Source of the DNA: Chiloscyllium plagiosum
Lineage: Eukaryota
Assembly: GCF_004010195.1 (NCBI RefSeq)
Contig: NC_057755.1
Span: forward strand, 10,394,954-10,458,953
Reading direction: 5' to 3'
DNA: 64,000 bases
Part shown: positions 28,920-56,598 of the stretch, one piece after another
Layout: the number at the start of each line of letters is the position of its first letter
Numbering within the stretch: the stretch's first letter is position 1
The notes under the pieces: generated by a model
What the model was told of the DNA's origin: nothing
The model's database searches: none
Seen by the model: only the letters and a program-made list of their open reading frames with translations
Program-made: the position numbers and the translations under genes

Positions 28920-29163
28920 GATTTATTAAAAATGTTTTGTTCCAGACAAGTAGGTTGTATCAGTGGGGTTAAAGCATAAATATTGTTTGTTGTGATTTAT
29001 CCACGATTAAGTTTGTGATGCTTCAAATTTTGTAAAACTGGCATCGTGGACAAATGAAATAACTGAAACTCAAGGCATCAGTAACATTTGGAAAATGCTC
29101 GGATGATAAACGTTTGAATAGCACCACTAATGTCATGTTCTACAATTTACAGCAATCAAGGCA

Positions 29164-29260
29164 ATGAAGTGGATAATGGGAGCTTCTCTCTACCTCACAA
29201 TCGCAGCTCTTTTATGCTTAGGAACAGAAATCGATTTTGCAACTTCAAACAATGAGAAAG
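29164..29260 (+). CDS. Candidate first coding exon A2 (exon 29153-29260): MKWIMGASLYLTIAALLCLGTEIDFATSNNEK, signal-peptide-like
   Basis: tttacag| acceptor, AAG|GTAGAT donor, 108 nt, phase 1; n-region MK plus hydrophobic core; shares C18, TE-D and SNNEK with A1. Confidence 0.55.
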
Positions 29261-29957: not shown

Positions 29958-30128
29958 GACAGGACGCTACTGTGGGAAAGGGTGACGTAAACATCATTTG
30001 TTTGATTATTATCATCGTAAATTTCATGCTCGTTGAGATTTGTCACTATTCAAAGCAAACACGAAATCACAGAAACTATTGTGAAGAAATGCCATTCCAA
30101 CAATCCTGGCAAAGACATGAAGCTGAAG
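29958..30128 (+). CDS. Candidate exon B2 (171 nt): GQDATVGKGDVNIICLIIIIVNFMLVEICHYSKQTRNHRNYCEEMPFQQSWQRHEAE
   Basis: ttttttatatag| and AAG|GTACAA; phase 1-1, open, in frame with A2. Confidence 0.5.
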
Positions 30129-35416: not shown

Positions 35417-35482
35417 GATCTGAAGTGAGCACCCAAAAATCTTGGAGTGATTTCACTGCAGGCATAAATGCTACTCCGAAAG
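35417..35482 (+). pseudogene. 66-nt exon copy c1 (GSEVSTQKSWSDFTAGINATPK), acceptor mutated
   Basis: ttaacGG instead of ttaacAG; donor AAG|GTAAAC intact; frame open; an internal CTGCAG could give a 21-nt exon 35462-35482. Confidence 0.4.
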
Positions 35483-37035
35483 GTAAACGTTAAACTATAA
35501 ATTGCTGAACATTTTCTCGACATTTCAAACAAATAGATAGCAAGTACAGCATTTTTTAACCAGAGATGACAGTCAGGACATTAATTTCTATAAAAGTGTA
35601 ATGCGATTAGAGTGCTGGAATAATAAGGTAAATAAATATAATTGCTGAACTTATTGTTTACAAGTATCTTGGAAAGCATTCAAAAGAGAAACTTTTAAGG
35701 TTTTGTTAACTTAATCGAGTGAGGTGTCATGACTATTACTGTGTAAGCGTGAACGATGAAAACAGGGACATATATAGTTTATAACTCAATTCATTTTAGT
35801 TAACTCTTCATTTTCTAAAGCGAGAATGAGAATAGGAAAGAAACTGTCGTCAGGGAAATAAACTTCAAATGATTCGTCTACATATGTAATTATCACACAC
35901 CTCCTGATGATTAGGAAAAGATTCAAAGAACATAAACAACCAGAAAGGAGCTTGTATGTGCTGCCTAAATGGAATATGAAAGGAAACGTGCCAGGGACAT
36001 CAAAACGCTAAGAAATGTTGTATTTTTAAAGCAAGATCAGGAGAAATGGTTGCTCATGAAAGGTTGAATGTGCAGCATTGTGGATGACAGCGGGGAAAGT
36101 GCAGACCCGTTGAAATTTCTTTACCCAAATATGGACATTTGGAAATATTATTTTATGAAATATTCATTATCCTCCTCCCTCTTTTTATGACTCAGGATCA
36201 CAAATATTGATCAAACTAATCAGCATCAAGAACAAGTTGTAGAATCAGGTACAATTACAACATTTAAATGATACTTGGAGAGGGACACGAATAGGAAATG
36301 TTGAGAGGGATATGGGCCAAACGCAAGCGAAAAGGACTGCTTTAATTGGTGAAATGAATTTGATCACAGGGTCTCTCTCTGTGTTGCATGATTCGATGAG
36401 CCTAGATGTGAGTCGATGGTCATTTCTGTCTCACGTTCTGTTTCTCCCCATCAAATGCGATATAAGAAAGTATCGACAAGGTAACTTCTTTTTATACACT
36501 CAATTTAAATTACAGTGATTTTTTGTTATGATTGCAACGACCATCAGGGCATGAGATATAAAGCCAAGATTATACAAGACAAAGGGACCGGAGAGATCGA
36601 AGATTATCTCAGCAGAAGGAAGGGACGGATAACAAGCAATGCATGTTTATTTCACTACAATGCCGCATTCTTTTGGTTTCGACGCCAGTCTCTTTTTATT
36701 GTCATTATTTTTAGGTTATCGATATGGATTTAAAAGTGCTGAGCGAATTCAGAAAATTGAAAACGGTACAGAAATGTCACGGCAGTTGATACTGAATGAG
36801 AAAGTTTTAGTCTGCAGCAATTGCTTGAGATAGTTAAGCAAAGACTGAATGGTTTGAAATGGTACGTTGAAGGATGTTTTGAAAGGAGGTCGAGTTATCA
36901 ATGGATGACCAGATTTTGAAAGTTTTACGGGGACCAAGCAATCTCAGTGTCAAGATCAAGTCAACACAGTCCTCCTCTAACTTGTTAAAAATCACACAAC
37001 ACCAGGTTATAGTCCAACAGGTTTACTTGGCAGCA

Positions 37036-37070
37036 CACTAGCTTTCGGAGCATCGCTCCTTCATCAGGTG
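37036..37070 (-). ncRNA. Minimal hammerhead ribozyme, intact core
   Basis: Reverse complement cac-CTGATGA-a-ggagc(gat)gctcc-GAAA-G-CTA-gtg; palindromic AGCT stem III, CUA triplet. Confidence 0.7.
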
Positions 37071-38077
37071 GTCGTGGAGGGTTAAATCCTAATAGGCAGA
37101 ATTTATAGCAAAAATTTACAGTGTGATGTAACTGAAATTATACATTGAAAAATTGATTGTCTATTAAGCCTTTCATCTGTTATAATACAGTGATAGTTTC
37201 ACTTCTTTCATGTGTAAATCACAAAATCTTTTTTTTAAAACGTTGCAGTCTGGGATTAGCTGTTAACAATGATGATAGCTAGACGATATGTTGAAGGTGT
37301 TGGCATGGAACACTGGGGAAACTGAACAAAGGCTATGACAATGGATGAATGGGGACCGCATAACAATTAACAGACAGGAGGTTAGCCTCCCAGTTGGGGA
37401 ACACTTCAGTGGTCCAGGACATTCAGCCTCGAACCTTCGGGTGACCGTACTCCAAGGTGTACTTCGGGACAGGCAGCAGAGAAAAGTGACAGAGCAGAGG
37501 CTGATAGCTAAGTTCCATACCCATAGGGAGGGCCTCAACAGGGACCTTGGTTTCTGTCACATTACACGTGACCACCATTACACTATACACACACACAGAC
37601 ACTTCTACACACACACACATACACACACACACACACTCACACACTCAGGCGCTCCTATACGCACACATATATTTTGTGGGGTGAATTTGTACTTGCAGGG
37701 TTGCATTGTACTTTGCTCAAAAACTACATGAGTTCCTGTAGAATTCTGAGCTTTAAAACTGCATGAATTCATGTAAAACTCCGTTATCTCACATTTTAGA
37801 TTAAAATCAATCTAAACGTCATGGCATAGACAGAGAACACGGGGGCCAACACCTTCAACATATTGTCTAGCTATCATCATTGTTAACAGCTAAGCTAAGA
37901 ATGCGACTTTGTTTTTAAAAAGGTTTTGGGATTTACACATGAAAGAAATCAAACTATCACGCTATTCTAACAGATGAAAGGCTGAAAGGACAATAAATTT
38001 TTCAATGTATAATTTCAGTTACACAACACTGAATTTTTGCTATAAATTCTACGTGTTAGGATTGATCCCTCCACTAC

Positions 38078-38112
38078 CACCTGATGAAGGAGCGACACTC
38101 CGAAAGCTGGTG
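38078..38112 (+). ncRNA. Hammerhead motif, probably inactive
   Basis: cac-CTGATGA-a-ggag(cgaca)ctcc-GAAA-G-CTG-gtg; G at the cleavage position violates the NUH rule. Confidence 0.55.
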
Positions 38113-39123
38113 TGCTTCCAATTAAACCTGTTGGACTACAACCTGGTGTTGTGTGATTTTTAACTTTGTACACCCCAGTTCATCACCGTCACCTACAAAT
38201 CATGCCTCCTCTAACTACTAATACTTCTCCCAGCGTGTCACCGCACCTCCGACAAGAGGATAAAGAGAGCCCCGCAATGTTAACAACGCTGGTGGAAAAA
38301 TTGAATGGTTAAACGTCTAACTGTTTATTAATCTACCTGAACTAACTGCTTACATCCCACATTTCACTTGATAGATAGGAGAGGTGGTCACCAATTCAGA
38401 TGAATTACAAGATAAAAAAAACTGTTTGAAAATCTAAGCATTTCTGGTGCATCTGTGGAGACAAATCAAAGTTAATATTTTGATTTGAGTGATCCTCACA
38501 CAGAATTGATAGAACGCATGACTTTGATATCAAAAGCAAAGAACAAAATTAGTGCAGAGCTATGTTAGAATTATAAAAAAAAAACACAGTCACAACGTTG
38601 TGTTCTATTCGACATAATGTGGAAGAATGTGACTTTATAGGATAGGGTGACTGCATGTATATTTTATAGACACCAGAATAGTATGCATAGAAAGAAAAGG
38701 ACAGCTGATATTCAGTTCAATGCTCACTGCTCTATAATCGATGAAGTTATGATAAGGAAATAGAGCGGGTGCAAAAATATCAAGACACCATATAATGGGA
38801 GAAAGTAAGTTATGATTCACCTTTAAGTGATACAAATACCCACATAAAAAAAGTATTCTAAAAGCTAAGTGTACAAATATAAATTGCTAAAAACCTTCCC
38901 AATATTCTAAAAAATTATGCTCTTTTAATGAATCTGAAAATTTTTAAACAAAAGGAAAATTTAGCACAGAAAGTTGCATAAGAACACAGTGTGATGACTG
39001 TGGTCGAATTGTAAGACAAAAGGAAAATATAATAGTTGGCATTACTGCTTGCAAATGCTTCAGGAAGGAACTGAAATCATAAATTTGTAGGAAATTGTTA
39101 ACTGGATTATTTGACATTCGATC

Positions 39124-39127
<4 letters not shown>

Positions 39128-39191
<64 letters not shown>
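39128..39191. repeat. (TA)n microsatellite
   Basis: Direct reading; paralogous to 44008-44052. Confidence 0.95.
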
Positions 39192-39195
<4 letters not shown>

Positions 39196-39534
39196 CATAA
39201 ATAATCTGCATTACAATTCATTTGAGTGATTCTCCACATTCAAACCAGAGAATGAATTCAGGAAAAATAAGGTTCAGAACGGCAACAATTTCACGTGTTG
39301 TATTACTGAAGCACGTTTTCAAACTTCTTTGCTTCACAAATAGAATGCACAGTCGTGTGAGGACAGGGTGATATACAATTGTCATAAGTAAAACGCAGAA
39401 TAATACTCCATCACCGTCGGAATAAAGTACATCATCGAGCCTGGATAGAATATGATTGATGAGTGAAGTTGTAATTTTGTAAGGTGTGTATCTTTTCAGC
39501 CACCCAGCAATGTTGCATACATTGATTTTAACAG

Positions 39535-39600
39535 CTTCCGAAGTGAGCACTCAAGCATCTTGGTGTGATTCGACTGCAGACATAAAAGATATTCCGAATG
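39535..39600 (+). CDS. Candidate 66-nt exon c2 (ASEVSTQASWCDSTADIKDIPN)
   Basis: ttttaacag| and ATG|GTGTGT; only the phase-1 frame is open. Confidence 0.45.
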
Positions 39601-40084
39601 GTGTGTGTTAAAATGCAAATTGACGATTATCTATTGGAAATTGCAAACAAATAGACTTCAATTACAGCATTAAAAAAACATAATAACAGTTAGGATATTA
39701 CTTTTTGTAAAACTATTAGTGATTAGAGTGCAGGCATTGTCATGTAAAATATTTGCTGAATTCATTGCCCCCAATAATTTCAGAAACAATTCGGCATATT
39801 AACATTTAAGGTATTGTTTATTCAATTGTTAACCAAACACATGGCTTTGGTACCTGAAGCAAAGAACAAAAGGAGTGCAGATTCATTTTACAATTGTGGA
39901 AAGCACAGATGCACCGTTGTGATCTACTTTCCTTAATGTGAAAGTATGTGACTGAAGGGAAGCATTTAGATTGTCACTCAGTTCCTTCGAGATCGTTTTA
40001 AAATTTCTTACCTGGGAGTAAGAGCAGGAAGTACAACCTTGGAAGGGAAATCAATATCAAAAGTTTGCAAAAACAACGAAGATC

Positions 40085-41980
40085 CTGATGATTAGCAAAG
40101 GGTTAAAAAGGACCAGCAAATGGCGCCACAAAGTAGCACGTGGTTGTAAAAGGGAACAGATTAGGAAAAACGACAGGGACAGCAAATGATAAGCAACTGT
40201 ATAGTGAAATAAAACGAGCTGAGGAGCAATGATGGTAGAACAGTTGAAATTAATTTCTCAATATTCACAGTTGAATATGTATTTTTTTTAAACATAATTG
40301 CCTTCCTTCCTCGTTTTTTCATTCAGTAAGTCAAAGGGAGGTCAAAACACGCACGAACAATGACAACATTTGAAAGATATTTTGAGAATAACAAGAGTAC
40401 AAAAGGCTCAGAGAGATATCAGTGAACAGGCAAGGCGGGATGGTTTAAATGGTAATGTAGCTTGGACCACAGGGTCTATTTCTGTGCTGTGTGGCTCTAT
40501 GACATTCGGGGTTAATCGAAGGTCAGGACTACATAGCATTCAATTTCTTCCACTCTAATGGGATGTAAAATAGTGTCAATGAGCTTACCTGTCATGATAC
40601 AATGAATGTAAATTTAAGTAAAGCTTCAGTATGGTCTGAACGAGTATTAAAGTCCTGAAATGTAAAGCTGAGAGGAAATTGATACTACATATCATAAAAA
40701 AATTATCTGAGGAATAGAAAGGGCAGGATGACAAGTAAAGAAAGATTCTTTCTGAACAATATTGTTCTATTTCATTGCAATCAGTTTTTATTTCCATTTT
40801 TTCGAGTCATCTACATGGTGGTGAAACATCTGGACGGAATTCAAAAAATTAGAAACATTTACATTGTTTGATAATGAATGAGAAAGATTTTTGTCTGCTG
40901 GACTTTTGTGATATATTTCAATGGAGCAGTGCCAAATGTAGCAGAGCCAGAATGGTTTGAGATAATTCGATTAGATTACTCACAGTGTGGAAACAGGCCC
41001 TTCATCCCAACAAGTCCCTGATGATTAGTAAAATATTAATAAAAGGACCAGCAAATGGCGTCACAAAGCAGCACGTGGTTGTTAAAGGGAACATATCAGG
41101 AAACGTGTCAGGGACAGAAAATGATAAGCAACTGTATCCTGAAATAAAGCGAGCTGAGGAGCAATAATGGCAGAACAGTTGACATTCATTTCTCACAATA
41201 TTCACAGTTGACAATATATATTTTTTTAAATATTAATTGCCTTCCTTCCTCGTTTTATCATTCACGAAGTCAAAGAGAGATCAAAACATTCGACACCAAG
41301 AGGAAGTTGTACATGCACATACAATGACAACTTTTGAAAGACAATAAGAGAATAACAAGAGTACAAAAGCTTCAGAGAGATATGAGTGAACAGGCAAAGG
41401 GGGATGGTTTAAATTGAAATGTAGCTTGGACCAAAGTTTCTATTCTTTGCTGTGTGGCTCTATGAGCCTCGGGGTTAATCGAAGGTCAGGACTGCATTGC
41501 ATTGAATTTCTTCCACTTTAATGGGATGTAAAATAGTTTCAATGAGGTTACATATCATGATACAATGAATGTAAATTTAAGTAAAGCTTCAGTATGGTCT
41601 GAACGAGTATTGAAGTCCTGAAATGTAAAGCTGAGAGGAAATTGATACGAAATATCATAAAAAACTTATCTGAGGGATAGAAAGGGAATGATCGCATGTA
41701 AAGAATGCTTCTTTCTGAACAATATTGTTCTATTTTATGGCAATCAATTTTTATTTCCACTTTTTCGAGTCATTAACATGGTGGTGAAACGTCTGGACGA
41801 AATTCAAAAAATTGGAAACAGTTATGTTAGTTGATACTGAATGAGAAAGATTTTTGTCTGCTGGACTTTTGTGAGACATTTCAATGGAACAGTGCCAAAT
41901 GTCGCAGAGCCAGAATTGTTTTTTGATAATTAGATTAGATTATTTACAGTGTGGAAACAGGCCCTTCATCCCAACGAGCC
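40085..41980 (+). repeat. Recent direct tandem duplication, ~935-960 bp unit
   Basis: 40085-41017 vs 41018-41980, much more similar to each other than to other array units. Confidence 0.9.
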
Positions 41981-42243
41981 CACACCGACCCTTTGAAGAG
42001 CAACCCTCCCAGACCTAATCCCCTACATTTTCCCCTTCACATAACAGTATGGGCAATTAAACATAGCCAACCACCTAACCTGCACATTTGTGGACTGTGG
42101 GAGGAAACCGTAGCACCCAGATGAAACCGATGCTGACAAGGGGAGAATGTGCAAACTTCACACAGACAGTTGACTGAGGCGGAAATTGGGCCCGGGTCTC
42201 CACTGCTGTGAGGCAGCAGAGCTAACCACTGTGCCACCGTGCC
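41930..42243 (-). mobile_element. tRNA-derived SINE (HE1-like, elasmobranch)
   Basis: Reverse complement begins GGCACGGTGGCACAGTGGTTAGC (A box), degenerate B box, core TGTGTGAAGTTTGCACATTCTCCCC, CR1-like tail ending (CTAAT)n. Confidence 0.85.
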
Positions 42244-44007
42244 GTAACAGATAGAGGAAAATTTTAAAGGGTGGTGCAATTATCTGTAAGTGACTGAATT
42301 TTGAAAGGATTACAAGATTGGAGCAATCTCAGGGTAAAGACAAAGTCAGCATAGACATACGCTTTCAGTTGAGAGCTTTGACCAGTGGCAGTTTGACCAG
42401 ATGGGTCACTACATCTCAGGTTAGTGGAATGTTTGGGAAACAGAACCCTGCAAGATAACCTGAGTTGGTGTAAGGATTGAATGATGGTCTCATTAAGTGA
42501 TCCACAATGCAACTGTGCTAAGTTTGTACGTCATGCATTCAATTGATGCATAGGTTAGCTGGTCAAAAAAAATTGTTTGAAAACCTCAGAATTTTTGATA
42601 GCGTCTGTGGAGAGAGAACATACGTAACGTTTCGGTTGAATAATCCTCCCACAACACGGAAAGAACACACGACCTTGACATCCGAAGAAATGAACATAAG
42701 GTGCGCAGCTTCATGTTACAATTGCAAAAAGCACAGATGCACCATTGTGATCTTCTTTCCGTAAGGTGGAAGTGTGTGATTCTCTAGGATAGGGTGACAA
42801 CATTTATGTTCGATAGGCAGCAAGCGGGACTGGTTTAGCTTGTAATATAGATTGGAATGAAGTATCTGTTTCTGCACTGCATGACTCAACGAGTTAATGG
42901 AAGGTCAGGTCTGTGTAACATTCAATTCTTCCCCTCTAATGCGAATAAGGTAGTGTCAGTGATGTTACATGTCATTAGACAGTGAATATAAGCTTTAGGA
43001 AAGCGTCGGTGTGATCTGGACCAGTATCAAAACCTGAAATGTTAGGACCAACTGACCACAGTCGTGCGCTCTCAGGTGAGAGCTTTCACTAGTGGTAGTT
43101 TGAGCAGATGGGTCACTACATCACCGGCAGGTATAGTGATTAAGAAACAGAACCCTGCAATGCTAACATGAGCTCGTGCAAGGATTGAATGGTGGCATCA
43201 TTAAATGATCTTCAATCGACTCTTCCAACTGTGTGCATCACACATTCAGATAGGTCAGATGGTCGCAAATTCAAAGAGAATATATGATGAAAATAAAAGA
43301 AATTGCTAGAATTGCTCAGCATTTCTGATAGCCTGTGTGGAGAGAAAACACTGGAAACGTTTCGAGTTGAGTGATCCTTCCTGAGAACTGCACGAACACA
43401 TGGCTTTGGCATCTGACGCAAAAAATAAAAGGTGTGCAGGTTCTTGTGGAAATCACGGATGCACCGTTGTGATCTACTTTCCCTTAATGTGAAAGCATGT
43501 GACTCGATAGGACAGGGTGACTGCATATATATTTTACAGACAGCAGAATATTTTTCATGAAAGCAGAAACACAGTCTTTATTCAGTTCGATGTTCACTTC
43601 CTTGTGCTGCACGATGACATGATAACGAAATACACTGCCTTCAAATCTATGAAAGAACCATATATTGGGAAAAAGAGGGAAATGCATCAACTTTGAGTGG
43701 TTCAAGTACCTACATAAAATTTATTCTGAATTGTAAATTTACAAATATAAACTACTAATTACCTTCTCAACATGCAGAACAGTTGAACTTATTTTTAACT
43801 GAATACGACGTTAATTAAATAAAAACAAAGTCAGCACAGAACGACTGGAAAAATACAGTGTGATGAGTGCACTCGAATCGGAAGACAAAAGGAAAATGTA
43901 ATAAACAGCAGTACTCTTTGCAAATGCTTCAGTAAAGGAATTGAAATCATACATTTGTAACAAAATGTTAATGAGATTATTTGACATGCCATCATTCATT
44001 TTCAATA

Positions 44008-44013
44008 CATATA

Positions 44014-44052
<39 letters not shown>
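44008..44052. repeat. (TA)n microsatellite
   Basis: Direct reading. Confidence 0.95.
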
Positions 44053-44055
<3 letters not shown>

Positions 44056-44414
44056 ACTGTGGGAACATAAATAATCTGCAGTTCAATTCTTCTGTATTGA
44101 TTCGCCACTTTCAAACCAGAGGATGAATTCAAGCAAAAAAGATACAGTACGATAACAATACGTGCTGTTGTACATAAGCACGTTTTCAAAGTTTCTTGTT
44201 TCACAAATATAATAGACAGTCCTTTGAGGACAAGCTGAAATACAATTGTAGTATGCAAAATGGAGACTGACACTCCTTCACCCACTGTTGGAACTTGGGA
44301 ACAAAGAACTTCATTAAGCCTGTTGAGAACATGATTAATCTGTGAAGTTGTAATTTTATAAGTTGTGCGTTTTTTTCAGCCACCCAGTAATGTTACAAAC
44401 ATCTATCTTAACAG

Positions 44415-44480
44415 CTTCCGATGCCAGCACTCAAACATCTTGGCGTGATTCGACTGCAGACAGACGAGATCGGTCAAATG
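44415..44480 (+). CDS. Candidate 66-nt exon c3 (ASDASTQTSWRDSTADRRDRSN)
   Basis: tcttaacag| and ATG|GTAAGT; phase 1-1 open. Confidence 0.5.
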
Positions 44481-46852
44481 GTAAGTGTAAAGTATAAATT
44501 GCAAACACATAGACTCCAATTACAGCGTTTTCTTTTCAAAGATGACAGGACATTACTTTCTGTGCAAAAAAAAATGTGATTAGAGTGATTGCATTGAAAT
44601 GCAAAATTTAAATAGTTGCTTGATATAATGCACACAAGTATTTCGGAAACACTTTGCCTTCTTAATTTTTAACTTGTTGTTGACTCAATTGATTGCGTGG
44701 GATGACTAATTTAGGTCAATGTAAGCAATGACTGCAGAGAAGCACATAATTTGTCACTCAATTCCTTTGAGATTGTTTTCCAATTTCTTGCTTGAGAATC
44801 ACGGCAAAAAGGCATATTTTGTAAGGGAAACCAATTTCAGTAGTTTATTCGACCAATGCAAAAACAGTATCGATCCTGATGATTGGGGGGGAAAAAAGCC
44901 GAGCAAACAGCGCCACGAAGCCAAGTGTGCTCGTGAAAGGGATCATTTTAGGAAGCATGTCAAGTTCGTCAAATTACAAGAAATTTCATCGTGACATAAA
45001 GCAATGTTATGCGTAATGATGGCACATTAAAGACTCAAAATGTGGTATTTCCGATGACTTTGGAGAAACGACAGACCTTTTAAAATTACTTTCTCCCAGT
45101 AAATACAGTTGGAAATATCATTCTGTGAACCTTTACTTCCCTTCCTCCCTCATTTTATCATTCAGAAAGTCAAAGATAGTTCAAATCAATCAACACCAGG
45201 ACAAAGTTGTAAATGCAGGTAGAGTTCCGCCATTTGAAAGATATTTGGAGAGCTCCAAGAGTACGGAACATTCAGAGAGATCGGGGCGAAACGCATGCAA
45301 ACGGGACTGGTTTAGATTGTAATATAGATTGGATTAAATTGTCAGTTTCTGGGCTGCATGACTCAGTGAGTTAATGGAAGGTCAAGGCTGCGTAACATTC
45401 AATTCGTCCCCTCTAATGCAAATAAGATAAAGTCAGTGATGTTAGATGTCATTACACAGTGAATATAAATTTTAGTCAAGCCTCAGTACGGTCTGAACCA
45501 GTATCAAAACCTGAAGTGTAAGGACAAATTGACTACAGACGTGAGGTGCGTGATTTAACCAGTGGTAGTTAGAGCAGATGGGTCACTACATCGTCGGCAG
45601 GTAGAGTGGTTGAGAAACAGAACTCTGCAATGTTAACCTGAGCTGGTGGAAGGATTGAATGGTGGCGTCATTAAGAGATATGCAATCCACTGTGCTAACT
45701 GTGTGCATCACACATTCAACTGATGGTTAGGTCAGGGGGACAGAAAGTCGAAGAGAATATATTATCAACAAAAATAGAAATTGCTCGAAACGCTCGGTAT
45801 TTCTGATAGCCTGTGTGGAGCGAAAACACTGGGAACTCAACACTGGGATTGAGTGATTATTCCTCAGAACTGCACTGTGTCTTTAATACCTGAAGCAAAG
45901 AACAAAAGTAGTGCAGGTTCGTGTTAAATTGTGGAAAGCACTGATGCACAGTTGTGATCGACTTTCCCTTAATGTGGAAACATGTGACTCTCTAGGACAG
46001 GGTTACGACATGTATATTTGACAGACAGCAGAATGTTATGAATAAAAACAGAAGGACAGTATTCATTCAGTTCGAAGGCAACTGTTTTATATTGCACGAT
46101 AATATGATGACGAAATAGAGTGTGTTCAAAACTACCAAACCCCAGAGTTTGGGACAAAGTAGGAAATGAATCAACTTTGTGTGATTCAAAAACCCGCAGA
46201 AAACATGTTTTGAAAGGTAAGCGTGCAAATAAATTACTCAGTACCTTCTCAAAATGCACAAAAGTTTAACTAATTGTTGCTGTTATTATACAAAAACAAG
46301 AGTCAGCACAGAATGTTGTGTAAATATACTGTGTGTTGGGTATGTCCGAATCCGATGGCAAAGGGAAAATGTTATTTGGCCTTGCTCTTTGCAAGTGCTT
46401 CAATAAAGAAATGAAATCATAATTTTTTAACAAATTGTTCACAAGATTATATGACGTTTAATCATTAATTTGCAACAAATATACCTATATATAACTGCAG
46501 GAACATTAATACTCTGCAGTTCAATTCCTGAGTTGATTCTCCACTTTCAAACCAGAGAATGAATTCAGGAAAAAAATCAAGTTCAGAACGGCAATTTGAC
46601 ATGTTTTATTGCATAAGCACGTTTTCAAACTTTCTTATTCCACAAGTAGAGTACACAGTACTGTGAGGACAAGATTAAAAACTGTTGTGGCAAATGCAGT
46701 GTGAACTGATGCTCCCTCACTCACTGTTGGAACATCGGAACTAAAATACTTAATTGAGCCTGTTGAGATTGTGATTGAGCTGTGAATTTGTAACTTATGA
46801 GTTGTGTAGTTCTTCAAACTGAAATAAATTTTGCAAACATCTAATTTAACAG

Positions 46853-46918
46853 CTTTCGATGTGAGCACTCAAACATCTTGGAGTGTTTCGACTGCAGACA
46901 GAAAAGATATTTTGAAAG
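46853..46918 (+). CDS. Candidate 66-nt exon c4 (AFDVSTQTSWSVSTADRKDILK)
   Basis: tttaacag| and AAG|GTAGGT; phase 1-1 open. Confidence 0.5.
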
Positions 46919-47715
46919 GTAGGTTTTAAAATGCAAATTGTTCCCGACATTGCAAACAAGTAGACTTCGAATACATTTTTAAAATGGGATGACAGTCAGG
47001 ACGTTATTTTCTGTCAAAATATAATGCGTTTATAGCGCTGTAATTGTAAGAAAAAATAAATATAATTGCTGAATTTATTGCTTAAAACATCTTGGAAATC
47101 ATTCAGATGAGAAACTTATAAGGTATTGTTAACTAAATCTATTGAGGTGCCATGACTACTTTTGGATAAATGTGAGCAATAACTGCAGGGGCATTTAGTA
47201 TATAATCCAATTCATTTGAGTTCATTCTTCACTTTTTAACAAGAGAATGAGAACAGGAAGAAAAACTGACGTCAGGGAAATCAATGTCAAATTTTTCATC
47301 TACATATCCGAATATTACATCGCATCTGATGATTAGGAAAAGATTCAAAGACCAACAACAGCCAGAAATGCACTTACATGAGCTGATAAGCGGGAATATG
47401 AAAGGAAACTTGCCAGGGACATCAAAACGATAATAAATAACGTAGTTTTTTGAAGCTGGTTCATTAAAGATGGGCCATTATAGATGGCTACGGGGAAAAC
47501 ACAGAACAGTTGAAATTGCTTTGCCCAAATACTGAGTTTCTGATGTATCATTTTATAAAATATTAATGTTCCTCCTCCCACCTTTTTACGATTCAAGAAT
47601 GGACAGATATGTCAAAATTATCAGCAAAAAAAGGAGATTGTATATGCAGGTACAATCATAACATTTAAAAGACATTTGAAGAGTGATACGAATAGGAAAT
47701 GTTCAGAGGGATATG

Positions 47716-47777
47716 CCCTTTTTCCAGCACCACACTCTCGACTCCAGCCAACAACATCTGCAGTCCTCACTTTCTCC
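47716..47777 (+). mobile_element. ~60-bp PLE terminal fragment
   Basis: Matches 56765-56823; AGAGGGAT direct repeat at 47705-47712 and 47779-47786; absent from paralogous units. Confidence 0.7.
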
Positions 47778-48696
47778 GAGAGGGATGCCGGCCAAACACA
47801 AGCGAACAAACCAGTCCCAAAGTTTAATTTGCGAGGCAAGTTAGATCACAGAGTCTCTTTCGTGCTACATGACTCTTTGAGTCCAGATGATTATCATGGT
47901 CGTTGCTGTGTAACATTCTATTTCTCCCTCTCTAATGCGATAGAAGAAAGTATCAATGCAGTTACTTATTTCTAAACATTCAATATAAATTTTAATGAAG
48001 TTTTGTTATGGTTGAGCCCATCATCACGGCATGAAATTTAAAGTCCATAGGACACAAGGCAAAGGGACAGAAAATATCAAACATTATCAAAGGGGTAGGA
48101 AGGAAGTGAAAAAGAATAATAAATTTTCATTTGACTAAATTAGTACATTCTTCTGGGTTCCACGCCAATCATTTTTTATTCCAATTATTTATACTTTATC
48201 CATACAGTTTTAAAATTGCTGAAAGGAATTCAGGAAATTGACAACCGTTCAGACAGTTCACGATCAGTGATACTGAATGAGAATTTTTTTTTTGGCTGCC
48301 AGACTTTTGTGAGGCACATCAATGGAACAGTGTGAAATGTAACGGAGCGAGAATGGTTTGTGATAATACATTGAGGAAAGTTTTAAAGGGCGATGCAATT
48401 AAAAATAAATGACTACATTTGAAAGTATTACAATAATCAAACAATATCACTTTAATCACAAAATCGTCGCAGATGTGCCCTATCATTTGAGACTTAAGAC
48501 TGGTAGTGATACTTTGACGATGTGGGTCACGAAACCTCTGGCAGATCGAATGGTTGAGAAAGAGAGAGTTGCAATGGTAACCTGAGCTGGTGGAAAGATT
48601 GAATGGTGGCCTCATTAAGTGATCCCGAATCCAACTGAGCTAACTGTGTACATCACACATTCAATTGATTAATAGGTCAGATGGTCACAAATTCTG

Positions 48697-49078
48697 GAAT
48701 AGTGGTGCTAGAAGAACACAGCAGTTCAGGCAGCATCCGAGGAGCAGGAAAATCGACGTTTCGGGCAAAAGCCCTTCATCATAAATACAGGCAGAGCGCT
48801 TGAAGGGTGGATAGATAAGTGAGTGGAGGGTGGTGGTGGGGAGAAACATCCATACCAATCAACCACATCGCCCTGTGGCCCAACATTTCAACTCCCCCTC
48901 CCATTCTGCCGTGGACATGGATGTCCTGGGCCTCCTTCACCGCTGCTCCCTCACCACCCGACGCCAGGAGGAAGAATGCCTCATTTTCCACCTCGGAACA
49001 CTTCAACCCCAGAGCATCAATGTGGACTTCAACAGTTTCCTCATTTCCCCTTGCCCGACCTCACCCCAGTTCCAAACT
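48697..49078. mobile_element. PLE fragment with inverted pseudo-LTR
   Basis: HRPVAQHFNSPSHS...EEECLIFHLGTLQPQSINVDF on +; hammerhead motif on - at 48753-48782 with C3 mutated. Confidence 0.85.
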
Positions 49079-49577
49079 GTGTTTGTTCGAATTGGAAGAC
49101 AAGAGGACAGTGTAAAAGTTTTCCTTACTAATTACAAATTCTTCAGTAAGAAGTTGAAATCATAATTATTTTTAACAAATTGGTAGCTCGATTATTTTGC
49201 ATTCGATATTATTTTTTGAATACATTTATGCAGGAACACAAATCTGCAGTTGTGTTGATTCTCCACTTTCAAACTACAAAAGTAATTCAGGAAAAGTCAA
49301 GTACAGAACGGGAATCAATTTCACATGTTTGTATTACATAAGCACGTTTTCTAAATTTCTTGTTTCACAAACAGATTACACAGTCACGTGAGGACAAGAT
49401 GAAATGCAATTGTATTATGCACAATGCAGACTGATACTCCCTCACCCATGGTTGGAACCTTTGAACAAAGTACTTCATTGTGGTTGTTGAGAATGTGATT
49501 GATCTGTGAAGTTGTAATTTTATACGTTGTGTAGATATTCAGACACCCAGTAATGTTGCACACATTTATTTTAACAG

Positions 49578-49643
49578 TTTTCACAGTGAGCACTCAAACG
49601 CCTTGGAATGATTCGGCTGCAGACATAAAAGATATTCCAAACA
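49578..49643 (+). CDS. Candidate 66-nt exon c5 (VFTVSTQTPWNDSAADIKDIPN)
   Basis: tattttaacag| and ACA|GTAAGT; phase 1-1 open. Confidence 0.45.
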
Positions 49644-50634
49644 GTAAGTATTAAATTATAAATTGCAGATCATCTACACGACATTGCAGATAAGTAGACT
49701 TGAATTACAGCATTTTATTAAACAAAGATGAGAGTCAGGATCTTATTTCCAGTGAAAATATTGTGTAGTTAGAGTGTTGGCATTGTAATGCAAAATATAA
49801 TTAGTTGCTAAATTTATTGCACACAAATATTTCAGAAACCGTTCGAAGTATTAACTTTTAACGCATTGTTAACTCAATCTATTGAGGTGGGATGACTAAT
49901 TTTGGATAAATGTGAGAAAAGATTGCAGGGAAGCATGTGGATTGCCAGTCATTTCCTTCGAGGTCTTTTCTCAATTTCTTACTTGAGAAACAGAGCAGGA
50001 AGCAAAATATTGTAAGGGAAATCAATTTCAAAAGTTTACTGTAACATTGAAAAACTAGCGTATATTCTAGCAATTGGTAAAAGATAAAAAGACCAGCAAA
50101 CAGCGCCAAGAATCAGCGTGTGCCAGTAAAAGGGAGCACATTGGGAATCGTTCTAGGGACGTCAAAGTATAAGAAGCTTTAGATTTACATAAAGCAAGCT
50201 GATGAAAAACGTTGGCTCAATGAAGTCTGAGAGTGTGGTATTTTCGATGAATTTGGAGAAAACACAGATCTGTTCAGTTTACTTTCCCTCAGTATTTATT
50301 GTTGAAAATGTGCTTTTGTGCAATATTAATTAGATCCCTCCCTCCTTTTAACATTCAGAAAGTCAAAGATAGATCAAAACAATCAAAAATAAGAGGAAGT
50401 TGTACATGCAAGTATAATGGCAACATTTGAAAGACAGAAAGAGAGGTACATGAATACGGAAGGTTTGGAGAGATACGGGCGATATGCAGACAAACGGAGC
50501 TGGTTTAAATTGCAATATAGCTTGAAACAAAGGGTCTGTTTATGTGTTGTGTGTCTCTTTGAGCCTCGATGTTCGTGGACGGTCAGATCTGCGCAACATT
50601 CAATTTGTTCCCCACTAATACGATATAAGATAGC

Positions 50635-50808
50635 ATCAGAGAGTCATGGAGATGTACAGCACGGAAACAGACCCTTCAGTCCAACTCGTCAATGCCGACC
50701 AGATATCCCGAACTAATTAAGTCTCATCTACCAGTACAAGGTCCATATCCCTCCAAACCCTTCCTATTCATATACCCATCCAGATGCTTTTAAATGTTGC
50801 ACTTATAC
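50635..50808 (-). mobile_element. CR1/SINE 3' tail fragment
   Basis: agagtcatggagatgtacagcacggaaacagacccttc...; absent from paralogous units. Confidence 0.75.
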
Positions 50809-50880
50809 TCAATGAGGTTACATATCATTTTACAGGGAATATAAATTTGAGTAACGCTTCAATATGGTCTGAACCAGCAT

Positions 50881-50966
50881 AAAGTTCTGAAATGTAAAGT
50901 TGAGAGGAAAGTGAAGGGAAAGAAAAGTTCTGAAATGTAAAGTTGAGAGGAAAGTGAAGGGAAAGA
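50881..50966. repeat. Perfect 43-bp tandem duplication
   Basis: AAAGTTCTGAAATGTAAAGTTGAGAGGAAAGTGAAGGGAAAGA x2. Confidence 0.95.
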
Positions 50967-52159
50967 TAAAAAAAAAATCTGAGGGACAGAAAGTGAAGGA
51001 TAGCAAAGAATGAATGTTTATTTCTGTATATTGGCTTTTGGTTTTATGGTAAGCAGTTTTTATTTCCACTTCTTAAAATTATCTAAATGGTGGTGAAAGT
51101 GCTGGACGGAATGAAGAAAATTGAAAACAGTCCAGAAATGCCATGTTATTTGATACTGAATGAGAAAGATTTTTATCTGTCGGGCTTTTGTGAGACAGAT
51201 CAAAGGAACATTATTAACTGTAGCAGAGCGAGAGTGGCTTCAGATATTGCATTGAGAAAAGTTTTAAAGGGTGGTGCAATTATCAATAAGTGACTGGATT
51301 TTGAAAGTATTATAAGAACTCAGTGTAAAGACAAAGTCACCCCCAACATACTCTATTAGATGAGTGATTTGACCGGTGGCTGTTTCACCAGACGGGTCAC
51401 TGCAACTCAGGCAAGATGAGTGGTTGAGAGACATAGCCCTACAAGGTTAACCTGAGCTGATGGAAGGATTGAATGGGGCCTCTTGAAGTAATCTCCAATG
51501 CAACTGTGCTAACTTAACACGGCACAGATTCAATTCTTGGATAGGCCAGGTGATCACAAAGTCAGGAAGGATATATGATCCACCGAAACAGAAATTGCTT
51601 GAGTAGCTAAACATTAATGATAACATCTATGGAGAAAACACAGCCAATATTTCGGTTTGAGTGATCTTTCCTCAGCAGTGAATAAAAACATCTCATTGAC
51701 ATCTGTAGCAAAGAACGAAAGGAGTGCACGTATATGTTGCAATTGTGAAAAGCGCAGGTGCACCATTGTGTTCTACTGTCCGGAATGTCTAAGGATGTGA
51801 CTCTATAAGACAGTGTGACAACTGTTTTGTACGAAGCCATAAGCATTCATTAAGCAGGCAGCCCCAAACCCAAACTTTGTCATTTAGTTTGGTAAGTGTA
51901 CAATGAAAATTACCTGGAGTGACATAACCAAGTTGACTACTAAATATTAAAACAAAAAACGATTTATTTACAAAGTTACACAATGATACACAAAGAACAC
52001 AATGAAGAAATCTTCAATCAATCTAAAGTGACTTAATTGTGCTGTTCTGAATATGCACAACAGTCCCAATAAGTAAACCCCATTTAAAAAGCCAGTGTAA
52101 ATGAAACAGGTTGATGTTTCGGTGCACAAAGAGATAGACAGAGTTTCCAACAGCTCCCT

Positions 52160-55100
52160 GTTGAGCAGGACGAACATAATAGTGTTCTCGGGTTTACTAT
52201 CGGTGCCACGAGATAGCGAGGTGAGGAAAGGGTGCAACTTAACATGTGGCTGTGCAGCTGGTGTAGGAGGGAGGGCTTCAGATATGTAGATAATTGAGAT
52301 GCCTTCTGGGTAAGGTGGAACCTGTACAAGAAGGACGGGTCGCATCTGAACTGGAAGGCACCAATGTCCTGGGTGGAAGGTTTGCTCGAGTAGTTCGAGA
52401 GGGTTTAAGCTAGTGTGACGGGGGTGTGGGGACTTGAGCTATATACTGGTGGTAAGAGTTGATGGAGATGAAGCAATAGCAAGAGGTCATGCAGCCAGTG
52501 CGAAGGAATTTTCAGGAAAAGAACCAAGGGATCGGTTAAAGTGTGTTTGCTTTAATGTAAGGAGTGTCAGGAATAACATTGATGAGCTGAGAGCATGGAT
52601 CAGTACTTGGTGCTATGATGTTGTGGCCATAACAGAGACGTGGGTTTCTCAGGGGCAGGAAAGGTTGCTGGATGTTCCAGGGTATAGAACATTTAAAAAG
52701 AATGGGCGGGGGAGAGAGAGGAGGAGAGAGAGGAGGGGGTGTAGCATTGCTAATCACAGAGGGTAACGCAGCTCCAGAAGTTACCATTGTCGAGGAGGGT
52801 CTGTCTACTGAGTCAGTATGGGTGGAAATTAGTAACAGCAAGGGAGCAATCATCTCGTTAGGGTTTACTACAGGCCCCCCAATAGCAGCAGGGAGATTGA
52901 AGGAAGCATAGGTCAACAGATCTTTTGGAAAATGTGTGAATATAGTAGGGTTGTCGTAATGGGTGACTTTAATTTTCCCAATATTGATTGGATCCTCCTT
53001 CGAGCAGATGGTTTGGAAGGAACTGTTTTTGTAAGGTGTGTTCAGGAGAGTTTCCTAACTCAGTACGTTGACAGGCCGACGAGGCGAGAGGCCATTCTAG
53101 ACTTAGTGCTCGGAAACGAGCCGGGCCAGGTGTCAGATCTTGCGGTGGGAGAGCATTTTGGTGATACTGACCACAAATGCCTCACATTCTATATAGCTAT
53201 GAAGAAGGAGAGAAGCAGGCACAATTGGAGGATATTCAATTGGGGAAAAGGAAACTATGATGCTATCAGACGTGAGTTGGGAAGCACGGCCTAGGAGCAA
53301 GTGTTCCATGGAAAGGGCACTATAGATATGTGGAGACTGCTTAAGGAACAGTTGTCGAGAGTGGTGCATAAATGCGTTCCTCTGAGACAGGCAAGAAGGG
53401 GTAAGATAAAGGAACCTTGGGTGACGAGAGCAGAGGAGCTTCTCGTCAAAAGAAAGAAGGCAGCTTACGTAAGGTGGAGGAAGCAAGGATCTTGCTCAGC
53501 TCGAGAGAATTACAGGCAGACAAGGAAAAAGCTCAAAAATAGTCTGAGGAGAGACAGGAGAGCGCACAAAAAATCCTTGGCAGGAAGGATTCGGGAGAAT
53601 CCAAAGGCATTTTACACGTATTTGAGGAATAAGAGAATAGTCAAAGAAAGAGTAAGGCCGATCAGGGATAGCATAAGGAAATTGTGTATTGCGTCTGAGG
53701 AGGTCGGGGAAGCCTTAAATGAGTTTTCTGCTTCTGTCTTTACAAAAGAAATGGATCATGGAGGGAATGAAACCATCGAGGAGCAGGTAAGCATGCTGGA
53801 ACGGATAGAGATTGAGGAAGCTGATGTGCTCAAAATTTTGCCAAACATTAAGATTGACAAGTCGCCAGGGCCAGACCAGATTTGGCCTCAGCTGTTTTGG
53901 GAAGTGTGAAATGTGATTGCTTCACCGCTTGCGAAGATCTTTGCATTCTCACTCTTCACCAGAGTCGTACCTGAGAACTGGAGGGAGGCAAATGAATTCC
54001 TCTCTTCAAGAAAGGCAATAGAGAAATCCCCGGCAATTACATACGAGTAAGTCTCTCATCTGTCGTCTGCAAGGTGTTAGAAAGGATTCGGAGGGATAGA
54101 ATTTATGACCATCTGAAAGAGCATGACTTGATCAAATGCAGTCAGCACGGCTTTGTGAGGGACAGGTCATGTCTCACGAATCTTATTGAGTTCTTTGAGG
54201 ATGTTACTAGACATGTTGATGAGGGTCGAGCGGTGGATGTGGTGTATATGGACTTCAGCAAGGCATTTGATAAGGTTCTCCATGGTAGGCTCGTTCAGAA
54301 GGTCAGGAGGAATAGGATACAGGAAACTTCAGCTGTCTGGATACAGAATTTGGTGGTCGACAGAAGGCAGCGAGTGGTAGTGGAAGGAAAGTATTCTGCC
54401 TGAAAGTCAGTGGTGAGTGGTGTTCCACAGGGCTCTGTTCTTGGGCCTCTACTGTTTGTAATTTTTGTTAATTACTTTGATGAGGAGATTGAAGGGTGGG
54501 TTAGCAAGTTTTCAGACGACACAAAGGTTAGAAGTGTCGTTGACAGTATAGAGGACTGTTGTAGGCTGCAGTGTGACATTGACAGGATGCAGAGATGGGC
54601 TGAGAGGTGGCAGATGGAGTTCAACCTGGATAAATGCGAGGTGGTGCATTTTGGAAGGTCGAAATTGGAAGTTGAGTACAGGATTACGGATGGGATTCTT
54701 GGCAGTGTGGAGCAACAGAGGGATCTTAGTGTGCAGGTACATAGATCCCTTGAAATTACCACCTAAGTGGACAGGGCTGTTAAGAAAGCATATGGTGTTT
54801 TGGCTTTCATTAACAGGGGGATTGAGTTTAAGAGCCGTGACATCTTGTTGCAGCTCTATAAAACTTTGGTTAGACCGCACTTGGAATACTGTGTCCAGTT
54901 CTGGTCACCCTAATATAAGAAAGACGTGGATGCTTTGGAGAGGTTTCAGAGGAGGTTTACCAGGATGGTGCATGGAATGGAGAACTTATCTCACGAAGTG
55001 AGGTTGACTGAGCTCGGACTTTTTTTTCATTCGAAAAAAGGAAGAGAGGGGACCCAATTGAGGTGTACAAAATAATGAGAAACATAGATAGATTTGATAG

Positions 55101-55413
55101 CCAGAAACTTTTTCCCAGGGCAGAAATTGTTAACACAAGGAGTCATAGTTTTAAGCTGTTTGGCGGAAAGTATAGAGGGGATGTCAGAGGTAGGTTCTTT
55201 ATGCAGAGAGTTGTGAGAGCATGGAATCCATTGCCAGCAGCAGTTGTGAAAGCGAGGTCATTGGGGATATTTAAGAGATTGCTGGACATGTATATGATCG
55301 CAGAAATTTGAGGGTTTGTACATTAGTTTTACCTTACATGAGGATCAATTGTCGGCACAACATCGTGGGCTGAAGGGCCTGTTCTGTGCTGTACTGTTCT
55401 ATGTTCTATGTTC
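52160..55413 (+). mobile_element. CR1 LINE (ORF1 tail + APE + RT) inserted in the Gypsy 3' LTR
   Basis: [64 protein letters not shown] tail; same subfamily as 24222-26984. Confidence 0.95.
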
Positions 55414-56598
55414 TAACTTCTCACCTGTTCAAGACTGTACTAAAACTGCTCAGCTCAGCAAGAGAGCTGACCACTCCCCGTTCTTTATACATGTCACTTA
55501 CAAAACCTGGCCACTTTGGCCTGAAGTCTCATCTGTTTACATGTCAACAAAAGGCTTCACAAAATCCGTGCCAACTCTGTACTACACCAGACGTATCGGA
55601 GCTTTTCACTCTGAAAAAAATCAAGGACAGTGTCTCTTTGAGCCAAGGAACAGTTTTTTTTTAAAAAAACTAGCTTTGTGAAACCTCCCCCCTTAAAAAA
55701 ATAAGCCATTAATACCAAAAAAATGGCTTCATTTTAAGCATCTCAAAACCCAGTTAGTAGCCTAAATATACATATACACTATGTTAGCTATAAACATGTA
55801 AACATGCACAACCCCATGCAAATTCAGGCCAAGGAACACACGCCACCAAAAGCCTCTGTCTCTCATTCGAGTCTCGCTAATGCTTTGGCAATCACAATTG
55901 CCACACACACATTTGTCAAATTGAACAGCTGCAAAAAGTTCCATCTGAACAATCTGGCATTTTTGTTCTTATTTTTTGTGATCAGTGTATACGATTGTCT
56001 GAGATGTATTCCTGGTAATGTAATCACTGAAATGTAAAGCCAACACCAAGCCTAAAGTCTCTTTCTCCACCGTTGAATATTTCTGTTGATGAACGTTCAA
56101 CTTCCTGGAACAATACCCAATGGAGATTTCTATTCCCTCATTATTCTCCTGCAGAAGCATCACACTGACATTGGCATCGATACCTACCTTGAAAGGCTTC
56201 GTGTAATCCAGTGAAGCAAATTTTGGGCCGTGGTTAACACAGGTTTTAGGCTATGAAATGTTTTTTGACAGTCCACTGTCCACTGAAACTTATTGGCCTT
56301 TTTAAAATAATTCGGTGAGAGGAGCAACCACACTGCTAAATTTTGGCACAAACTTTTGATAAAATCCATTCAATCCCATTACTGCTTTTTTTGTGTTGAC
56401 GGTGTGGGAAATTCCCCAATTACTTTCATTTTTGCATCTCGTACGACCATTTGTCCATGTCCATTAACATGGCCAAGGAAGGGGATTTGTGCTTTGGCAA
56501 ATTCACTTTTAGGTAGGTTTACCACCAAGCATGCCTTCCAAAGTTGATCGAACAATTCAAATAAATGCTGTAAATGTCCCTTCCATGAATCGCCAGGG

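Follow-up and report, generated by a model that had tools for sequence, protein, structure and literature searches.

Closest Described Systems

In the textbook view, vertebrate NLRs are soluble proteins that reach membranes only indirectly. ASCIZ/ATMIN is said to be a multivalent client of LC8. Linker L2 of KANK1 is described as becoming a rod through many weak LC8 sites (10.1101/2025.07.16.665182). Among NLRs, the available sections of a zebrafish study describe N-terminal repeats of ~30 aa in NLR-B30.2 groups 2–4, encoded by one exon each and variable in number, and in those sections neither a membrane anchor nor a link to LC8 is described (10.1101/027151). Actiniarian NLRs have 3–5 N-terminal TM segments, a trait described as anthozoan-specific (PMC5094078), and the sea-cucumber proteins AjNLRC4 and AjNLR-new are given an Ig-TM-NACHT order (PMC13133943). 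An NLRP-related family is expanded in the whale shark, where both occurrences of "transmembrane" in the available text refer to 7-TM receptors (PMC8455134). A search of the literature found no vertebrate integral-membrane NLR, returning the anthozoan and sea-cucumber cases along with two papers on sponges, and no LC8 site in any NLR.

The locus examined here lies in a 64,000-nt stretch of the Chiloscyllium plagiosum genome (the window) and combines several of these traits. Like ASCIZ/ATMIN and KANK1 L2, it has several TQT-anchored motifs in a predicted disordered stretch, with no homology claimed; unlike them, it is a shark NLR gene with one motif per 22-residue exon, at a strict period, between a predicted TM segment and a NACHT domain. 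N-terminal repeats that come one per exon (66 nt, phase 1) recall the zebrafish NLR-B30.2 genes, and an N-terminal TM segment ahead of NACHT recalls the anthozoan and sea-cucumber proteins, whose hosts are invertebrates; both are likenesses of architecture. Neither FISNA nor B30.2 is among the Pfam families of the C. punctatum models P0001 and P0002. A NACHT-WH-HD2 core is shared with the whale-shark NLRP-related genes, NOD2, and NLRP3; unlike these, the locus has no PYD or CARD at the N-terminus, a very short LRR part, and an altered Walker B.

Repeat Exons and Gene Model

The locus is RefSeq LOC122544087 (isoforms X1–X5, XP_043539039.1 to XP_043539045.1; "uncharacterized protein"). Its record gives no function in the name and no Pfam family, and names neither the TM segments nor the LC8-type motifs nor the link to a truncated NACHT. 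Its features, all on the + strand, are as follows; those with L011, L012, or L013 coordinates lie beyond the window.

16059..16155, +: coding exon 1 (cassette A), predicted signal peptide and short ectodomain; matches the start of P0105
18848..19030, +: exon with weak predicted TM A and cytosolic loop; AG/GT sites, phase 1; KD19 1.95
29153..29260, +: "exon B", another hydrophobic exon resembling a signal peptide, at an internal position in the models; predicted TM
29958..30128, +: TM exon B, predicted to be the final TM and followed by basic residues; homologous to the P0002 TM exon
35417..35482, +: repeat c1, SEVSTQKS; acceptor GG, no LC8 anchor, in no gene model (0/5 isoforms)
39535..39600, +: repeat exon c2, SEVSTQAS; anchor TQA; spliced into gene models
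44415..44480, +: repeat exon c3, SDASTQTS; TQT anchor with a small residue at -3; absent from isoform X5
46853..46918, +: repeat exon c4, FDVSTQTS; TQT anchor, D at -4
49578..49643, +: repeat exon c5, FTVSTQTP; TQT anchor with P at +2; placed in the LC8 groove by structure prediction
49644..64000, +: intron after c5; the gene continues beyond the window end
L011:1835-1900, +: repeat c6; donor GA
L011:4826-4882, +: repeat c7; own acceptor lost, cryptic acceptor used; IQT; absent from isoforms X3 and X4
L011:7231-7296, +: repeat c8; donor lost
L012:126-1848, +: NACHT-WH-HD2 exon, ~10 kb beyond the window; stops at codons 36 (TAG) and 220 (TGA)
from L013:774, +: next exon after the NACHT exon

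The five 66-nt units reported in the initial annotation are all present at c1–c5 and encode EVSTQKSW, EVSTQASW, DASTQTSW, DVSTQTSW, and TVSTQTPW; their donors read GTAAAC, GTGTGT, GTAAGT, GTAGGT, and GTAAGT as it had them, and phase 1 is indeed the sole frame open across all five. Taking all five as usable exons goes too far: c2–c5 have the acceptor ttaacAG, but c1 has ttaacGG and is unusable as written because GG replaces AG (an in-frame AG 9 nt within c1 is used by no gene model). Nor does the array end at five, as three more units (c6–c8) lie beyond the window end. TQ is common to 5/5 window copies; the LC8-type motif once assigned to every copy is found as TQT in c3, c4, and c5, but c1 has TQK and c2 TQA.

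The RefSeq models join two signal-like/TM cassettes, c2–c5, and a further copy to the NACHT exon. Isoform X2 (P0105) is a splice of ten locus exons with AG/GT sites, ending at the TAG, and X3 is built likewise. The models thus use 4/5 window copies, which favors the view that the repeat exons are spliced into transcripts; inclusion is read from these models, which are themselves predictions. The proposal that valency could be tuned by skipping or duplication agrees with annotated single-exon skips (c3 in X5, c7 in X3 and X4) and with repeat numbers of 14 motifs in P0111 and two in P0002. The idea of a free tail fell, since the NACHT exon downstream makes the repeats a linker in an NLR gene. 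Pfam searches of three repeat exons and the two signal-like exons gave nothing but a weak DUF2721 match and found no domain in P0105; a PDB sequence search with P0105 gave one chance-level match (E 0.11). Searched against 1.84 billion representatives, P0105 matched four proteins, all from Chiloscyllium or Stegostoma, and an ESM Atlas search with the P0002 N-terminus gave no usable match.

The Downstream NACHT Exon and a Shark-Ray Clade

The downstream exon has NACHT, winged-helix, and HD2 matches above the Pfam cut-off (NACHT, E 1.3e-20; NLRC4_HD2, 5.8e-10; NOD2_WH, 1.1e-7), which together make up the NLR core. One LRR_6 match falls below cut-off (17.8 vs 23.4 bits), and the orthologue models stop soon after this exon. 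Pfam found no PYD or CARD on P0105, P0001, or P0002 (NACHT-side domains only on the latter two); TM segments and repeats stand there instead. Walker B reads hhhhED/DD rather than hhhhD[GS]hDE. A "catalytically dead NACHT" was considered and dropped, as Walker B of the clade is mostly DD, as in Apaf-1 (PMC2323615).

In the C. punctatum models P0111, P0001, and P0002, homologous TM and repeat exons are joined to an intact NACHT. The frame that is open in P0111 and P0001 is interrupted in the C. plagiosum copy. In its NACHT exon, 494/573 residues are identical to P0111; given the two stops, this copy can yield at most a 329-aa protein without NACHT. Its nearest paralogue is broken as well, by a 7-nt deletion (pN/pS between the two, 0.74), as are several further cluster members. 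The NACHT exon drew no reads in two single-cell runs of one sample, which is no test of expression. Contigs of sequencing runs X1 and X2 (~96% alike, one extending into an intron and hence DNA) have TTG at the second stop and give no reading at the first. Of 27 exon differences checked (40 listed, with 29 more beyond the listing), 21 show the paralogue's letter in these contigs, so they may represent another copy or species.

All eight rows with an N-terminal hydrophobic segment fall in one 13-row shark-ray clade (SH-aLRT 100), against 0/18 outside it, in a quick tree of 33 out of 104 matches (every cartilaginous-fish match except P0104, plus nine outgroup rows), from which two rows without a Walker A match were left out. 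In five of the eight (P0002, P0009, P0013, P0014, P0020), a signal-like segment and ectodomain precede the TM. The clade groups among the sampled vertebrate NLRP3-like sequences, in a tree without invertebrate rows. STQT repeats occur in 0/11 non-Chiloscyllium rows of the TM clade, two of which show one isolated match, IQV or TQV.

Membrane Topology

P0105 has four hydrophobic segments and P0002 two. The order in P0002 is signal peptide, 24-residue ectodomain, TM (KD19 3.81), Cys cluster, repeats, and NACHT, with no further hydrophobic segment after the strong TM. Coding exon 1 is homologous to the P0002 N-terminus. Exon B (KD19 1.72, three K/R upstream) shares 61% identity with the signal-peptide exon of P0002, and the exon at 29958..30128 (KD19 2.68; three K/R and no D/E in the next 12 residues) matches the P0002 TM exon at E 8e-5. 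The initial annotation had made cytosolic topology depend on exon B as the TM segment; the repeats do probably face the cytosol, but it is the separate TM exon that would decide. A TM segment precedes them and a NACHT domain follows, so that hydropathy, the basic residues that follow the final TM, and the NACHT further on make the cytosolic side the most likely one. NACHT is in itself no proof of this, since an extracellular NACHT is claimed for a sea-cucumber protein (PMC13133943). TM A is weak (KD19 1.95), and its failure to insert could alter the parity. Discovery of the TM exon and of NACHT led us to drop an initial reading, that of an extracellular mucin-like stalk behind a signal peptide.

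LC8 Motifs and Predicted Docking

Anchor and flanks were scored with published LC8 rules, taken from section 9 of PMC6607443 and from PMC3078936: polar at -4, large at -3, non-aromatic at -2, no internal Pro, and a strand breaker at +2. Many TQT peptides fail to bind LC8, according to the abstract of the former (PMC6607443). The anchor [TVI]-Q-[TV] is present in c3, c4, c5, and c7, missed by c1 and c2, and found in 13/14 motifs of P0111 and 2/2 of P0002. In the flanks, c4 departs from the rules at +2 alone, c5 solely in lacking the preferred D/S at -4, and c3 at both -3 and +2; the P0002 motifs satisfy all eight rules checked. Changes at -1 are to I (c7) and V (P0106), both LC8-allowed. The repeats appear disordered, with pLDDT <50 at P0002 residues 76–153 and 78% polar/disorder-type residues at P0105 187–293. 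Elsewhere in P0002, AlphaFold2 predicts a helix at 2–20, a long helix from 42 (pLDDT 74–86 over 41–70), and a folded NACHT, the nearest solved folds being NOD2 and NLRP3.

Complex prediction with an LC8 that is 87/89 identical to the shark exons scored 0.75, against 0.18 for the best of three controls; the runs share at least 78% of contacts, with partner pLDDT at least 45. The score mark is reached by 51/78 solved vs 2/108 mismatched microbial pairs and, in eukaryotes, by 71/105 solved vs 2/126 mismatched pairs, in a benchmark without peptides. LC8/DYNLL binding, as originally proposed, is predicted for c5, which is placed in the groove in canonical register (Q259 at LC8 Gly63), but not for c4, which is not placed. 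Because LC8–TQT complexes are already solved, the predicted complex may merely reproduce known structures. On these models it is likely that the TQT repeats dock LC8, in expandable number.

Origin of the Array and Weighing of Alternatives

Units c1–c5 spread by kilobase tandem duplications that included introns. Among c2–c5 pairs, exons are barely more alike (identity 0.68–0.86) than upstream introns (0.65–0.83), and pN/pS is ~0.94 (0.203/0.217; motif half, 0.173/0.200). STQ and W are invariant in all five copies, as first noted, but not clearly beyond chance, since the duplications carried introns and the flanking introns are about as alike as the exons: neutral simulation expects 4.06 invariant residues against the five seen (P 0.38), gives any three-residue invariant run at P 0.11, and a stop-free frame at P 0.22. 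Across 12 homologous units, the open frame is kept beyond the neutral model (P 0.011), as is the anchor (8/12 vs 4.45 expected, P 0.027). The five window copies alone leave neutrality unrejected, and any selection on the motif among them is weak. TQT is not deeply conserved, because the zebra-shark homologue has a single such exon with TET (GVRTETAL), and within the cluster TET recurs in two units, while another has unrelated sequence where the motif would lie; a distant cluster unit, its splice sites intact, reads ERRTQTT.

We give about an even chance to the explanation that the 66-nt exons form the linker joining NACHT to a predicted membrane anchor in a shark NLR gene whose NACHT exon has two stops in this copy, and that the TQT repeats probably bind LC8 on the cytosolic side. 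The exon structure, gene model, downstream NACHT with its stops, duplication-varied repeat number, and annotated skipping are directly shown. A transcribed pseudogene, its front half spliced but an early stop sending the mRNA to decay and leaving the repeats functionless, comes not far behind and fits either orthologue reading: the NACHT exon has two stops, splice sites are lost at c1, c6, c7, and c8, a further exon follows the stop-bearing one, and the nearest paralogue and several other cluster members are broken. Set against this, the ten exons of the model are all in frame with canonical sites as far as the first stop, five isoforms are annotated, and the stops could reflect an allele or assembly fault, given the TTG in the two-run contigs, themselves possibly another copy or species. 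It is less probable, if still worth entertaining, that the repeats serve a membrane-anchored NLR as a cytosolic spacer that can expand and evolves almost neutrally; TQT would then have arisen from TET and been copied with the kilobase duplications, any LC8 binding being incidental. Intron-like divergence, a pN/pS near one, the unrejected neutrality of the five copies, the presence of TET or another sequence both in distant paralogues and in the zebra-shark unit, and the zebrafish precedent of single-exon ~30-aa repeats (10.1101/027151) all agree with such a spacer; the anchor's retention in 8/12 units and in 13/14 C. punctatum motifs, though these are close copies, and the fact that the amplified form is TQT rather than TET do not.

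The two remaining accounts are improbable. Phase-1 symmetric exons, Ser/Thr-rich sequence, four N-glycosylation sequons in the P0105 repeat region, a signal-peptide-like exon B, and a weak TM A would suit a lumenal or extracellular glycosylated, mucin-like stalk behind a signal peptide, but exon B and the repeats are separated by a TM exon that basic residues follow, and in P0002 the strong TM precedes the repeats with nothing hydrophobic afterwards. ATM/ATR-type kinases prefer S/T-Q sites. The repeats as an S/T-Q cluster for such kinases, a reading to which the initial annotation alluded, would account for TQ in all five window copies, but we consider it the most improbable of all and without support: IQ in c7 and VQ in P0106 lose the phospho-acceptor yet retain the LC8 pattern, and a membrane location is predicted for the protein.

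Implications for Shark NLRs

Under the linker explanation, an odd count of membrane passes would leave the repeats cytosolic, and two receptor chains would be zipped together in parallel by every LC8 dimer. An intact receptor such as the 14-motif C. punctatum model may thus be pre-dimerised, with a fixed spacing between its NACHT and the membrane and with exon number setting both avidity and length. The C. plagiosum product would be a NACHT-less membrane protein of 307–329 aa with at most three TQT sites plus one of IQT type; its transcript may be decaying, or it may act as a decoy still binding LC8. A bolder version, which we consider rather doubtful, posits a clade of integral-membrane NLRs in sharks and rays. 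In bamboo sharks, an LC8 ladder of 2 to 14 sites, its length counted out in exons, would pre-dimerise the receptor and fix how far NACHT lies from the membrane, and the truncated copy would survive as an alternatively spliced membrane decoy competing for LC8 or pairing with intact receptors.

If true, vertebrates would have a case of integral-membrane NLRs in this shark-ray clade with its signal peptide and TM. The C. plagiosum copy is of lower value here because its NACHT is broken. If binding holds, genes and isoforms with 2, 3–4, and 14 evenly spaced sites would form a ready LC8 valency series, with which linker length, dimerisation, and NLR oligomerisation could be probed.

The repeat exons and their gene

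Re-reading of the sequence bore out five 66-nt units (c1 to c5) with the peptides and splice donors of the initial annotation, starting at window positions 35417, 39535, 44415, 46853 and 49578, and phase 1 is the sole frame open in all five. The feature as a whole is real, and its description is right in part. Unit c1 is preceded by GG instead of AG. The units sit inside kilobase-scale tandem duplications, in which introns and exons have diverged to about the same degree. Three further units (c6 to c8) follow in L011, a stretch just past the window end, and a genome search found several more in neighbouring genes. Between live exons of the window lie decayed copies of the 66-nt unit and of a signal-like exon, the latter containing a stop; they are traces of duplications of the cassette, that is, the signal-like exon plus the TM-like exon.

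Further units, decayed copies and a related broken gene

L011:1835-1900, unit c6, directly past the window end
L011:4817-4882, unit c7, directly past the window end
L011:7231-7296, unit c8, directly past the window end
Window 18072-18173, 19280-19413 and 30408-30583, decayed copies of signal-like exon and 66-nt unit
G000:C48:8862013-8873482, - strand, broken gene with signal-like exon, TM remnant, 66-nt unit and NACHT with stops

A distant 66-nt unit on the + strand of the same contig (NC_057755.1, handle C46) at about 10286670, 108 kb before the window, which spans 10394954-10458953, has intact splice sites and the sequence ERRTQTT, which differs little from the usual LC8 motif, with N gaps downstream.

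Ten kilobases beyond the window end, a 1.7-kb exon (L012:126-1848) matches Pfam NACHT, NOD2_WH and NLRC4_HD2. Of its 104 matches among 3509 database candidates of 621-2000 aa, the nearest come from two Chiloscyllium punctatum NLR models, which are 85-86% identical to it; no other match exceeds 42%. The C. punctatum model P0002 runs from a signal-like segment through a 24-residue ectodomain, a strong TM, a Cys cluster and a linker to two STQT repeats and NACHT, and the repeats of a second model, P0001, stand immediately before NACHT. Searching the window with P0002 located signal-like exons at 16059 and 29153, followed by TM-like exons at 18848 and 29958, respectively. The repeat-region query led to RefSeq LOC122544087, whose isoforms X2 and X3 correspond exactly to a splice of both cassettes and the repeat exons of this locus at AG/GT sites, terminating at a TAG that is codon 36 of the NACHT exon. 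Among these gene models all five isoforms lack c1, X5 omits c3, and X3 and X4 omit c7. The start of the NACHT exon is partly duplicated 1.1 kb upstream of the real exon (L011:8991-9076); in X1, X4 and X5 the Gln is that of this duplicate (ELQHK), but the residues after it are those of the main exon.

A clade with predicted membrane anchors

Isoform X2 (P0105) has four hydrophobic segments (hydropathy score KD19 1.42, 1.95, 1.72 and 2.68), with basic residues before the third and after the fourth. The positive-inside rule relates such residues to membrane orientation. A cleaved signal and three passes in P0105, or a signal and one pass in P0002, would leave the repeats cytosolic. In the AlphaFold2 model of P0002 the TM is a helix predicted with confidence, the linker (76-153) has low confidence, and the NACHT resembles NOD2/NLRP3.

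A quick tree built from 31 NACHT regions groups the eight rows that have an N-terminal hydrophobic segment (KD19 at least 1.6) within a single shark and ray clade of 13 rows (SH-aLRT 100); none of the 18 rows outside it has such a segment. Walker B, usually D[GS]hDE in NLRs, is altered across this TM clade (P0001-P0020, P0111), reading DD in 10 of 14 rows, ED in three and DN in one; the downstream DE is kept only in two Heterodontus rows. STQT repeats occur in Chiloscyllium rows only. Whereas the Chiloscyllium ectodomain has 24 residues, ray members P0009, P0013, P0014 and P0020 have about 170-450 between signal-like segment and TM. In the Stegostoma model P0232 (LOC125449490), which has no NACHT, the signal-like/TM cassette occurs three times in tandem, and a single segment of the 66-nt type reads TET; per this model, the multipass front half extends beyond Chiloscyllium.

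TM-bearing NLRs have been described in anthozoans (PMC5094078) and sea cucumber (PMC13133943), and N-terminal repeats encoded on exons in zebrafish (10.1101/027151). The available part of a whale shark report (PMC8455134) describes an NLRP-related expansion and mentions no membrane anchors. Searches of the openly accessible literature yielded neither a vertebrate integral-membrane NLR nor an LC8 site in any NLR.

Possible LC8 binding

The units had been proposed as a possible multivalent tail for the hub protein LC8 (DYNLL). In c3, c4 and c5 the TQT-type anchor is present and most flanking positions are favourable; c1 and c2 lack the anchor. The specificity of the ATM/ATR kinases is background here. 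By motif rules taken from parts of PMC6607443 and PMC3078936, the P0002 motifs satisfy all eight, and the anchor is present in 13 of 14 motifs of P0111, a third C. punctatum model. Two LC8 chains, which match the shark exons at 87 of 89 residues, were modelled together with two c4-c5 chains; the predicted complex scored 0.75, versus 0.18 for the best control. Runs share at least 78% of contacts, and partner pLDDT is at least 45. In the calibration, which did not extend to peptides, 51 of 78 solved pairs and 2 of 108 mismatched ones came up to the score mark. The prediction places c5 in the LC8 groove with its Gln at Gly63; PMC12057147 uses this register. Because similar LC8 complexes have already been solved, the predicted complex shows likeness rather than binding.

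State of the copy and the cluster

As assembled, the local NACHT exon is interrupted at codons 36 and 220 by stops that may be real, and splice sites are lost in c1, c6, c7 and c8. Its nearest paralogue has a 7-nt deletion; between the two, pN/pS is 0.74, with 27 residue changes private to one and 26 to the other. P0111 combines 14 motifs with an open NACHT, and parts of that model resemble intron read-through. The order signal-like exon, TM exon, 66-nt unit, NACHT recurs, broken, on C48 and elsewhere on C46. At about 10.10-10.75 Mb, ten or more NACHT exons lie clustered on C46; four give matches that are complete and open, the others are broken or gapped, and only some have signal-like and TM exons close by. 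An open frame inside the NLR cluster (L021:778-1281, - strand) is presumably like the C-terminal half of a rhodopsin-type GPCR. We take window stretches 24320-26940, 52420-55310, 56000-60400 (- strand) and 31750-32480 to be broken transposon reading frames, presumably two LINE-type reverse transcriptases, an LTR-retrotransposon-like stretch and a Penelope-like piece.

Selection and function

For c2-c5, pN/pS is about 0.94, and a star-shaped neutral simulation was not rejected for the five window copies. With 12 units, picked by motif or DNA likeness while more decayed units fall outside the count, the open frame (P 0.011) and the eight anchors kept (P 0.027) both exceed what such a simulation gives. 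The one such exon of the zebra-shark (Stegostoma) relative with three signal/TM cassettes reads TET, as do two distant units in the C46 cluster, a third reading RRTQT. Taken together, these results indicate that the repeat exons are kept as coding and that TQT is a lineage-restricted form; they hint at selection for LC8 binding.

The repeats could be a neutral spacer, a reading we rate well short of even. The leading reading, to which we give about even chances, is a membrane-anchored receptor with LC8-zipped linkers: the intact receptor would sit anchored in the membrane, LC8 dimers would zip two linkers together, and the NACHT domains would be held as a pair at a distance set by exon number. 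LC8 acts in a like way on the KANK1 linker (10.1101/2025.07.16.665182, in the part available). Independently of how these two readings are rated, the C. plagiosum copy may be a functionless transcribed remnant, a possibility we place somewhat short of even. The feature varies on known kinds: an NLR, anchored in a membrane by prediction, whose linker is a candidate for multivalent LC8 binding. It is broken in this genome.
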